Virus record (IMG/VR): IMGVR_UViG_2547132273_000024
Coordinates: 1 to 5,653 of that record
Length of the DNA stretch: 5,653 nt
From: a virus
Lineage: Duplodnaviria; Heunggongvirae; Uroviricota; Caudoviricetes
Reading direction: 5' to 3' (one strand)
Shown one piece after another: positions 3,001 to 5,653 of this stretch (the first letter of the stretch is position 1; each line of letters opens with the position of its first letter). Made by a program: the position numbers.

Positions 3001-5653
3001 AACGCCGGCTGGATAGGCTGAATTCGCCATTGTTCCTCCTGCGTCCAAGAGCACGCTCAGGTTATACTCTTATGGACAAGAATTAAACATCCTGAGATGG
3101 TAAGGGTTGGTTTTTGATCCAAGTGTTGATGGTAGGAAGGTGATAGAGACATTCGCTGTTTTTCTTTGGCGTTCCGTCGGGGGCGATTTGTTTATATTCT
3201 CTGCCGTTCATCCACGCACTGTCCCTGGCGCGTAATATTGTTCCTTTTCTCAGGCCTGTTACAGCCATTAAAAGCTCCAGTGTTACCCATTCATTCGCAT
3301 TTATCTGTACAACAGGTGTGATGACTGGCTGAATGCCATGGTTATGTTGGTTTACTAACTCGCGCATAAGTTGCCTCTGCATGTGTAAGAAAAAACCGCC
3401 CGAAGGCGGTTGTCAGTTGATTGATGTACGGCGCATTTTTCGAAGGCTGGCAATATGCTTTTCCTTCTCAATTTCCGCTTTAATCATATGCAGTTCGTTG
3501 TGCTCGATTCGCTCAAATTCTTCATTAAATGCACTAATTGAAGTGGCTCTGGTTCTGCCGTCGAGCCTTCGGTAGATCACCTGAGTCAGAGTTACCTTGC
3601 ATATTTCTACCGGATAGTTGTTGGCATCAACGAAAGACTGCCCGCGCTGGATCAGGACGAACACTGGTTGTATTCCTTGAGTGCCATATCATAAACACGG
3701 CATGCCGAGAGGTGTGTTGTAGTCAACGTCGTTCGTATCCTGAAAAGTCCATGTGTTGTGACGGTAACTTCCGGGGCTTTGAGTTTCACTGCATCAACGA
3801 TATGCTGATGTTTGCGCCTTTCGAATATAGAGCTGGATATAACCACACTTGCTGTTAAACCGTAACTTTCAAATGTGATTTTCATGTCATTATCCTCGCA
3901 GTTAGCCGGGCAACAAAAATAAATAATGTTGTTCCTGCGAATAACAGGATACCGCCCGTCATTAGAGAAAGGAAAAACAATATTAATGTACGCGGGTTGT
4001 TTCTCAAAATATTCTCTCTGTGATTCGCTCACTCTGACAATTCGTTGATCAAGTCACGGTATTTATTCAGTTCTTGCAACGCCTTACATGCACCCTCCCA
4101 TCGTTTCTGTTTCCGCCCGGCGCGGCGCGCTTCTTTCCGTGATTTACGTAGCAGGTCACCTATAATGTTGTGCTGCACTGGCTGCACTGGCTGCACTGGG
4201 GCGATATTTGGTTTTTTGTCCACTTCCCTTGCAACTGCCTGCCAGATGCCATTTTTTACAGTTACTACCCCCTGGTTTTTTAACTTCCATAGAGTGTCAA
4301 TAACGTCATTCAAATCAATATTGAGACCTTTAGAAATACTTTCGGCTGATGCTTTTCCTAATTTGTTCAATTCTGTGAGCACTGCGTTCATTTTTTTCTC
4401 CTGATATTTTAATGTCGGTGGGGCTGTTATACGGTTAGTGAGGTGTCAGCTTCTTCTACCAGCTTTTCCAGTTCATCCAGCTTTCGGGAAAGAATTTCAC
4501 CAAACAGATGAAGTTCTGCATCTGCTGTAATCGGGATTGGAACAAATCGTATTCCACTTCTGGCAAGTTGATTTGCGATTTCCAGACACTGCCTTAATTC
4601 AACTGGTGATGCCTTTGTCAACGTCGTTTTTTCGCTCATTGGTTTTCTCCAGAAATTTAACAATACCCGGAACCATCTCAATGGATGGTGTGCCGCATTG
4701 GTTACCCCATACATCAAATCCATGCGAGGTGTGGCGGGCGAACAGTTCTATCCGGGGAACATCGCCAAGAAGTTGCACAAGCTTTTCTCGAGCCATATCC
4801 GGCTTGCGGGAGTGATCAAGGCGCGGTGCAGTGAATGACTGGATTATTCCGGCGTTAATGCGTTCGGGCAGATTTCCTTTCACTGCAAAAAGGCAGTCTT
4901 CGCTGTTAGCGCGAGTGGTGCTACCCATACCCATGACCAGCTTGTCGGTCTGTCTTTTCCCGCATTTGTTCCAGGTTAATCCTTTCATCGTCACCAGACG
5001 AAAGCCCCACGCTTCTACAACCTTCAATGCTTCAAGTGGTTGTGTAGGCACCCACCACATAGACAACAGGCAATTATCGGCTGCCAGTTCCCATACCGGG
5101 AGGCGGCAGATATCCAGAAGACTCATGACCGGATATTTAAAACTTGCACCGCGTTGACCATCGGTTGCTTTGTCGCGGAATGTCCAGGGGGGATCTGCGT
5201 AAATGAGGGTGTATTTTTTCGTCATAGCGCGTTTTCAAACTCATCAATGTAAAGTCCTGCTTTAATCAGTCGGCGACGGCGTTCGGCCTTTTGCACGTAT
5301 TCCTCGCGACAGTTTTTTGCTGCGTGTTCACGGCTTCTGCGACTGAATGGAGGAACGGCATTGCGTGAGCGAGGTGTGTCACGACGAGGATTTGATTCGA
5401 GGGAGAAAAAGCGATCAACGATTCCGGTGTCTGTGGTGAATGGTTCTGAAGCCTTTATTTTCACAACCTTACTGCCCTTTGTCAGGCCGCGAGCTACCTT
5501 GTTGAACTCGCAAAGTGAAACACCAAATTTCTCTGCTATTTCACTGCCAGTAACAGGACGACCACGAGACTGAATCATCCAGGTGACGCGTTCTTTTAAC
5601 CCACGGAAGGCACCGGGCCTTCCAGAACGCCTGTAGAAAGCGATCTGTTTCAA

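Follow-up and report, generated by a model that had tools for sequence, protein, structure and literature searches.

The locus described here raises the question whether an adenine methyltransferase gene in the left arm of a Shiga toxin (Stx) prophage works together with the small gene to which it is coupled, and which nucleic acid the two products modify. It resides in a stretch of 5,653 nt (IMG/VR virus record IMGVR_UViG_2547132273_000024, positions 1 to 5,653), which we call the window; positions and strands of all features are given in the numbering of this whole stretch. Both genes lie on the minus strand at the right-hand end of the window, where an open reading frame (ORF) encoding 143 aa (5222..5653) is followed by one encoding 208 aa (4599..5225). 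The region is almost certainly the two-gene methyltransferase module of Stx phages on which Gong, Chakraborty and Koudelka have reported (Nucleic Acids Res 2023; PMC10810198), the smaller protein being their PNB-2. The module is already known and published, and it is also annotated, the enzyme as MT-A70 family methyltransferase, its upstream neighbour's product as 'regulator' or hypothetical protein.

Compared with the enzyme of the Stx2a phage PA8 studied by these authors (M.EcoPA8orf6770P), the methyltransferase of the window is identical at 207 of 208 positions. The sole difference is serine 55 (codon at 5061-5063, within LLSMWW), in place of the alanine present in PA8 and in at least 90% of the homologues. 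PNB-2 agrees with its PA8 counterpart EcoPA8orf6775P at 143 of 143 positions. Furthermore, the forward primer for gp6 and the terminator, as given by Gong et al., match the window locus by sequence, and the published order of PNB-1 (AntA-like), terminator, PNB-2 and methyltransferase with overlapping stop and start codons was found in the window together with phage P13374. The TTG start, the ATGA junction, the upstream terminator and the DUF1382 and DUF1627 neighbours are common to both loci; the window prophage differs from PA8 by its location in wrbA and by its integrase module. Over positions 4400-5653 the identity is 100% to Escherichia phage P13374, which is the Stx2a phage carried by the E. 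coli O104:H4 strain of the 2011 outbreak, and also to phi191 and other Stx phages. This segment matched 187 phage records, 98 of which covered at least 80% of the query, and 303 of 5,426 complete E. coli genomes (132 of the 303 with at least 80% coverage), every match being chromosomal. Among the viral loci surveyed, approximately half of the methyltransferase copies shared 100% identity with the window enzyme and the others 99%.

Gong et al. (PMC10810198) compared the Stx2a phages PA2 and PA8; an IS629 element inserted into precisely the methyltransferase gene distinguishes the two. With the methyltransferase, the PA2 lysogen regained a high spontaneous induction as well as amoeba killing, while a mutant of the PA8 enzyme in which DPPW was converted to APPA failed to complement. 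The purified methyltransferase alone exhibited weak, unspecific activity, determined as use of S-adenosylmethionine (SAM), and was inactive on dam- DNA. His-tagged PNB-2 pulled down the methyltransferase, both proteins were cross-linked in a ratio of 1:1, and co-purification required the presence of the methyltransferase gene. PNB-2 also raised the activity of the enzyme and shifted its substrate preference. The holoenzyme used total RNA 13.5-fold better than DNA and, in the SAM-use assay, preferred 16S over 23S rRNA, and 30S subunits. RNA from a methyltransferase-positive lysogen was a poorer substrate of the holoenzyme, which therefore implies methylation in vivo. Moreover, PNB-2 was present in more than 83% of the Shiga toxin-producing E. 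coli (STEC) with a full-length methyltransferase gene (PMC10810198).

Applied to the near-identical proteins of the window, these data suggest that PNB-2 and the methyltransferase would form a 1:1 complex, that PNB-2 would steer the activity to 16S rRNA and 30S subunits, and that an intact DPPW site would raise spontaneous prophage induction and hence Stx-linked killing. All in all, the published MT-A70/PNB-2 module is probably the best explanation of the locus, and we consider it likely that PNB-2 is a true partner of this methyltransferase; the biochemical evidence for this particular pair stands. An earlier note on this DNA, made from the sequence alone, had proposed the upstream protein as a possible specificity subunit and the pair as a functional two-gene module. 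This proposal is borne out by the co-purification, the cross-link and the altered substrate preference, which were already on record. For the self-protection of the phage or the epigenetic regulation that the note had envisaged, a preference for 16S rRNA and an increase of spontaneous induction and virulence were reported instead (PMC10810198). The interpretation given in the note is therefore partly supported, and its observations were confirmed with one correction, which concerns the extent of the upstream ORF.

The 208-aa ORF (4599..5225, minus strand) is predicted to encode an MT-A70 family N6-adenine methyltransferase. Its residues 9-14 read YADPPW, the DPPW motif of the catalytic and SAM site (residues 11-14) being encoded at 5184..5195, and CRLPVWELAADNCLLSMWW is located downstream; the LPVWELAADNCLLSMWW stretch to which the earlier note had drawn attention, along with DPPW, is also contained in the ORF. 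In 35 homologues, P12 and W14 of the motif were invariant and D11 and P13 nearly so. The expected Pfam family PF05063 (MT-A70) was matched over the whole profile (positions 1-172 of 172, E=5.3e-22, 79 bits at a cut-off of 23.9). Matches were also obtained to PHROG 359 'DNA methyltransferase' (E=8e-117), a profile with approximately 117 additional N-terminal positions relative to the window protein, and over the full length to the generic Type II methyltransferase model MTase_II of PADLOC (E=1.7e-86). Since all three models match, the assignment is far above chance. PADLOC gave only this generic match for the methyltransferase and none for PNB-2, and NCBIfam gave zero matches for either protein. 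A pseudogene or a chance ORF was ruled out for both genes, which are intact and conserved.

Scans with Pfam and PADLOC disclosed no restriction endonuclease among the window ORFs, in agreement with the earlier note, and the adjacent cognate endonuclease by which a Type II restriction-modification (R-M) system is defined is absent from them. The sole R-M pair of P13374 lies approximately 11 kb off, beside cI, so that the MT-A70 gene is regarded as an orphan. By sequence, the closest solved structures are the Tetrahymena DNA N6-methyladenine (6mA) enzymes MTA1/AMT1 (E ~1e-12), followed by METTL3 (4e-5) and METTL14. The AlphaFold2 (AF2) model of the methyltransferase is of low confidence (predicted local distance difference test, pLDDT, 61), and its best Foldseek matches were all METTL3 or MTA1 (E ~1e-7, template modelling score, TM, ~0.5). 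Because the E-values of METTL3 and MTA1 are about equal, the model cannot tell an RNA enzyme from a DNA enzyme. For the same reason, and because MTA1 is ahead by sequence, the argument of Gong et al. that METTL3/14 are the closest relatives gives RNA no edge over DNA.

The upstream ORF, which the earlier note had taken to be truncated by the end of the window, is complete. Its TTG start codon occupies the last three bases (5651-5653), and in P13374 a GGAG is situated just ahead of the TTG and stop codons close the frame. PHROG 1680 spans the protein end to end (E=2.7e-79), residues 1-25 are kept in homologues of 53-60% identity, and Gong et al. cloned gp6 (PNB-2) from the identical TTG, at which their forward primer begins (PMC10810198). 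In the RefSeq record of P13374 (locus L001, 2338-3878), PNB-2 is called from an internal ATG with 118 aa, and the DUF1382 protein from an upstream ATG with 98 aa. Both starts look wrong against the homologues and the calls of the Prokaryotic Genome Annotation Pipeline (PGAP); as the upstream ORF starts at the TTG and encodes 143 aa, the 118-aa annotation is too short.

PNB-2 is a basic protein and, as the note had surmised, resembles helix-turn-helix (HTH) proteins. It comprises a winged-HTH core at residues ~19-85 and a basic C-terminal helix that ends in the conserved sequence RRxRLIxxGLYIDExE. In the AF2 model, for which 20 homologues were available, residues 20-90 reached pLDDT values of 80-90, with helices H19-30, H36-43 and H47-54 and a two-stranded wing (strands 66-68/82-85) in front of the basic C-terminal helix. 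Foldseek yielded weak generic winged-helix matches only (TFE-alpha, MarR/ZitR and ArsR, all E>=0.012), and a Pfam HTH_11 match was below threshold. The model agrees with a winged-HTH fold of PNB-2; fold evidence of this kind does not separate DNA from RNA binding. The family is small, as an exhaustive profile search among 1.84 billion proteins gave 63 representatives at E<=1e-3. Where other proteins seemed to match the PNB-2 C-terminus, recombination junctions or artefacts of gene calling are the apparent reason, and these matches were rejected.

How the two genes are joined was read from the sequence. The ATG of the methyltransferase gene (5223-5225) shares bases with the TGA of PNB-2 (5222-5224), which results in the ATGA overlap at 5222..5225 that the earlier note had recognized. 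A canonical Shine-Dalgarno sequence is missing in front of this ATG, which is compatible with translational coupling. As the methyltransferase gene has no Shine-Dalgarno sequence of its own, it may be translated by reinitiation at the ATGA, and PNB-2 and the enzyme would then be produced in roughly equal amounts. The 3'-end of the methyltransferase gene overlaps the DUF1382 ORF (4427..4639, minus strand) by exactly 41 nt, the value given in the note, if the latter is counted from the internal ATG at 4639, which is preceded by a GGAG Shine-Dalgarno sequence and yields a protein of 70 aa. PGAP calls this 70-aa form in related genomes from the corresponding ATG, and Pfam PF07131 (DUF1382) was matched by residues 35-93 of the long ORF (E=3.9e-28). 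The DUF1382 ORF is a neighbour, and nothing ties it to the enzyme.

Just beyond the window end, P13374 harbors an intrinsic terminator (CCCCGAC-ATCCC-GTCGGGG-TTTT) and the AntA-domain gene, the terminator being located between the antirepressor gene and PNB-2, 24-42 nt past the end of the window. PNB-2 and the methyltransferase gene are part of the leftward (pL-side) early arm, with the antirepressor gene on one side and DUF1382-xis-int on the other, and the terminator splits the pair from the antirepressor gene unless antitermination or an own promoter intervenes. In a promoter scan, sigma-70-like sites were no more frequent than in shuffled sequence, and we therefore make no claim on the stationary-phase promoter of Gong et al. 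An Rfam search of the window gave zero RNA families.

To what extent the pair is conserved was studied by gathering loci encoding PNB-2 homologues from genomes, viral contigs and assemblies and by classifying the downstream genes. The survey set comprised 81 divergent lambdoid loci with at least 1.2 kb of downstream sequence each, whose PNB-2 was 51-60% identical to that of the window. In 36 of them an MT-A70 homologue (~44% identity) resided behind the PNB-2 homologue (~54%) across the same 4-nt overlap (offset -3), a junction that is retained in divergent loci. The pairing is genuinely conserved, and in one subclade of PNB-2 the directly coupled gene is MT-A70 almost without exception. The first substantial gene behind PNB-2 was a DNA methyltransferase gene in 61 loci and a DNA-modification gene in 75; within the first three genes, a DNA-modification gene was present in 78 of the 81 loci, corresponding to 54 of 57 distinct gene arrangements. 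At least nine DNA methyltransferase families were found in this slot, among them MT-A70, PF05869 Dam, PF00145 C5 methylases, C5+Dam fusions, PF01555, PF02086 and two methyltransferase families recognized through PHROG only (757/954), as well as DndB, queuine-tRNA-ribosyltransferase (TGT)/DpdA-like and PAPS-reductase-like genes. MT-A70 was often followed by a C5 DNA methylase. More distant PNB-2 relatives occur in Mu-like early regions with no recognisable methyltransferase. According to the survey, PNB-2 is a cassette-independent gene that, in the enterobacterial lambdoid prophages covered, heads a hot spot of DNA modification, a pattern that fits a DNA-related role, as DNA-binding helper or cassette regulator, at least as well as rRNA targeting.

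Some further arrangements were observed around this slot. It is hypervariable behind the PNB-2 homologues (loci L005-L113), an ORF of 50-55 aa (PHROG 1998) often lying in between. In the E. coli O157:H7 SS52 prophage (L003, 3826-4030; the shared part corresponds to window 5222-5255) an unannotated 67-aa ORF (MSDLAMKVLKWQ...ALYIDEFENAL) precedes the methyltransferase gene. The 67-aa ORF of such argW-type Stx phages has the ATGA overlap, the same GGAGACAA ribosome-binding region and an upstream terminator, and since it keeps only the last ~10 codons of PNB-2, a recombination junction is indicated within the PNB-2 3'-end. The closest MT-A70 relatives (83% identity) follow, in some E. coli prophages, a PerC-family transcriptional-activator domain, not PNB-2, both being fused in one protein cluster. 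Thus, a longer homologue (P0076) carries the PerC domain N-terminal to MT-A70, and at another locus (L117, 2257-2508) a separate PerC-like gene precedes the methyltransferase gene. A fusion of PNB-2 with MT-A70 (Rosetta-stone link) was looked for and none was found.

Which substrate the pair serves in the cell is less clear than its composition. We give 16S rRNA an even chance of being the main physiological substrate. Several points weigh against this reading. The claim for rRNA rests on a SAM-consumption assay, by which methylation by the 99.5% identical PA8 enzyme was solely measured, and the authors note that the modified rRNA base has yet to be mapped (PMC10810198). In the main text, the comparison of the holoenzyme on RNA and DNA was carried out with dam+ DNA only, whose GATC sites were already methylated, and dam- DNA was offered to the methyltransferase alone. 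In addition, the slot behind PNB-2 contains DNA-modification genes almost exclusively, a poor fit to an rRNA-targeting subunit. The enzyme might instead be mainly a Dam-like GATC DNA methyltransferase, carried as an interchangeable lambdoid cassette for restriction protection or Dam-linked control, with rRNA activity being secondary and PNB-2 serving as a DNA-binding accessory or expression regulator. Besides the occupants of the slot and the C5 DNA methylase that often trails MT-A70, the full-length PADLOC Type II match, the proximity to the DNA 6mA enzyme MTA1 rather than METTL3 and the fact that the main text of Gong et al. has no holoenzyme assay on dam- DNA are in line with this explanation.

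The GATC reading also draws on M.EcoGV, an enzyme from E. coli O104:H4 C227-11 (Fang et al. 2012, cited in Gong et al. and in Forde et al. 2019). According to Gong et al. (PMC10810198), this enzyme is 'highly similar' to that of PA8 and conferred GATC methylation on DNA in vivo when overproduced; Forde et al. (2019) list it as a GATC 'Dam homolog' on Stx2 prophages. As far as these accounts go, M.EcoGV was expressed without PNB-2. The similarity stated by Gong et al., together with the 100% identity of 4400-5653 to the O104:H4 Stx2a phage, suggests that M.EcoGV may be the same protein as that of the window, an equation that depends on what Gong et al. and Forde et al. relate of it. If so, the window methyltransferase could also methylate GATC in DNA if overproduced. 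However, the inactivity of the methyltransferase alone on dam- DNA, the 13.5-fold preference of the holoenzyme for RNA and the poor substrate quality of the lysogen RNA speak against a DNA enzyme, and we regard this explanation as somewhat unlikely, DNA (GATC) as main substrate being a tentative proposition. It is unlikely, too, that the PNB-2 family consists, in place of rRNA-targeting subunits peculiar to MT-A70, of cassette-independent factors heading the hot spot that might load, activate or regulate whichever DNA methyltransferase follows, the Stx holoenzyme being chiefly a PNB-2-dependent GATC DNA methyltransferase whose activity on DNA was missed as only dam+ DNA was offered.

The partnership itself has also to be weighed, because the pairing is non-obligate on both sides. 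Unrelated cassettes occur behind PNB-2 homologues of 97-100% identity, e.g. MT-A70, PF05869 Dam, HNH with another methyltransferase, DndB, TGT-like, N6_N4 and D12 genes. PNB-2 of locus L066 (MT-A70) is 99.3% identical to that of L076 (PF05869 Dam), with the ATGA junction in both, and PNB-2 of L082 (MT-A70) is 100% identical to that of L094 (HNH and another methyltransferase). Conversely, the closest methyltransferase relatives (78-83% identity) lack PNB-2 and have other phage surroundings, where they follow DnaB in the nin region or else a PerC-like gene, and the SS52-type Stx phages retain just the last ~10 codons of PNB-2 on a different N-terminus, this chimeric ORF terminating with the same LYIDEFENAL. 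Taken as evidence for a module, the ATGA overlap is weak, since it is a conserved recombination junction no less than a means of coupling and also joins genes of unrelated kinds (PF05869 Dam, a DksA-type zinc finger, a 52-aa ORF) to PNB-2 homologues. PNB-2 could be a conserved early-region winged-helix protein, a regulator or one of unrelated function, which is no dedicated subunit, whose 3'-end would be a recombination junction and whose adjacency to the methyltransferase, including the ATGA, reflects phage mosaicism at a cassette hot spot; the distant relatives in Mu-like early regions would agree with this. Against it stand the methyltransferase-dependent co-purification, the 1:1 cross-link and the altered activity, the co-occurrence in STEC, and the subclade nearly always coupled to MT-A70. 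We consider mosaicism alone quite unlikely and retain the published two-gene module as the preferred explanation.

The module recalls other modification systems in part. Best matched by sequence among solved structures is the ciliate DNA 6mA complex MTA1c/AMT1 (PDB 7F4L-7F4T, 7YI8; E ~1e-12), whose MT-A70 catalytic subunit needs small homeobox-like DNA-binding partners for activity and for the binding of SAM and substrate, a parallel to PNB-2. In contrast to the phage pair, MTA1c is a eukaryotic complex of four subunits that includes an inactive MT-A70 paralogue; its helical arm is absent from the 208-aa phage enzyme, and its partners are unrelated to PNB-2. The mRNA m6A writer METTL3-METTL14, which has an MT-A70 fold, DPPW and an RNA substrate, is among the best Foldseek matches (E ~1e-7 with the low-confidence model) and a weaker match by sequence (4e-5), but it consists of two MT-A70 paralogues that form a heterodimer with zinc fingers, and no such paralogue is encoded at the window locus. 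Orphan Dam-type phage methyltransferases (PF05869, PF02086), which are found in this slot after PNB-2 homologues of sister prophages, belong to different folds or families. The arrangement of a small HTH gene ahead of, and coupled to, a modification gene is also reminiscent of the controller (C) proteins of R-M systems. Unlike in C-protein-controlled systems, the window module has no restriction gene beside it, and PNB-2 is described in the published work as binding the enzyme (PMC10810198).

The remainder of the window identifies it as the left arm of a Stx prophage integrated at wrbA. On the left, yccJ (897-1124) follows the interrupted wrbA (1145-1723, minus strand), whose 5'-end is replaced, phage sequence taking the place of the first codons, and the stop codon of a tyrosine integrase gene (1720-3054, minus strand) abuts wrbA. 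This boundary represents the attachment junction at wrbA that typifies this group of Stx prophages. A DUF1233 excisionase gene (3083-3382) is followed, also on the minus strand, by a DUF4222 gene, an unassigned 126-aa ORF and a DUF1627/winged-helix ORF, all of which lie between the excisionase gene and the DUF1382 ORF. In P13374 the leftward early arm has the order exo, recT, ..., AntA-type antirepressor, 143-aa ORF, methyltransferase, DUF1382, DUF1627, xis and int. The DUF1627/winged-helix ORF contains a perfect 9-bp tandem repeat (GCTGCACTG, 3.1 copies) at 4172-4199, which encodes PVQ repeats; among Stx phages the ORF product varies from 117 to 138 aa, that of the window corresponding to P13374 plus one repeat unit. 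A 172-aa ORF past yccJ (1-519, plus strand) gave zero Pfam or PADLOC matches.

Through the module, a prophage methyltransferase is connected with spontaneous Stx phage induction and hence with virulence. The conflict between the biochemical data, which point to 16S rRNA as a target directed by PNB-2, and the genomic context, a slot in which DNA-modification enzymes are exchanged, deserves attention. Its resolution would show whether phage MT-A70 enzymes act on host ribosomes or whether the Stx-phage protein is a DNA enzyme of the Dam kind, assisted by a helper that binds DNA.

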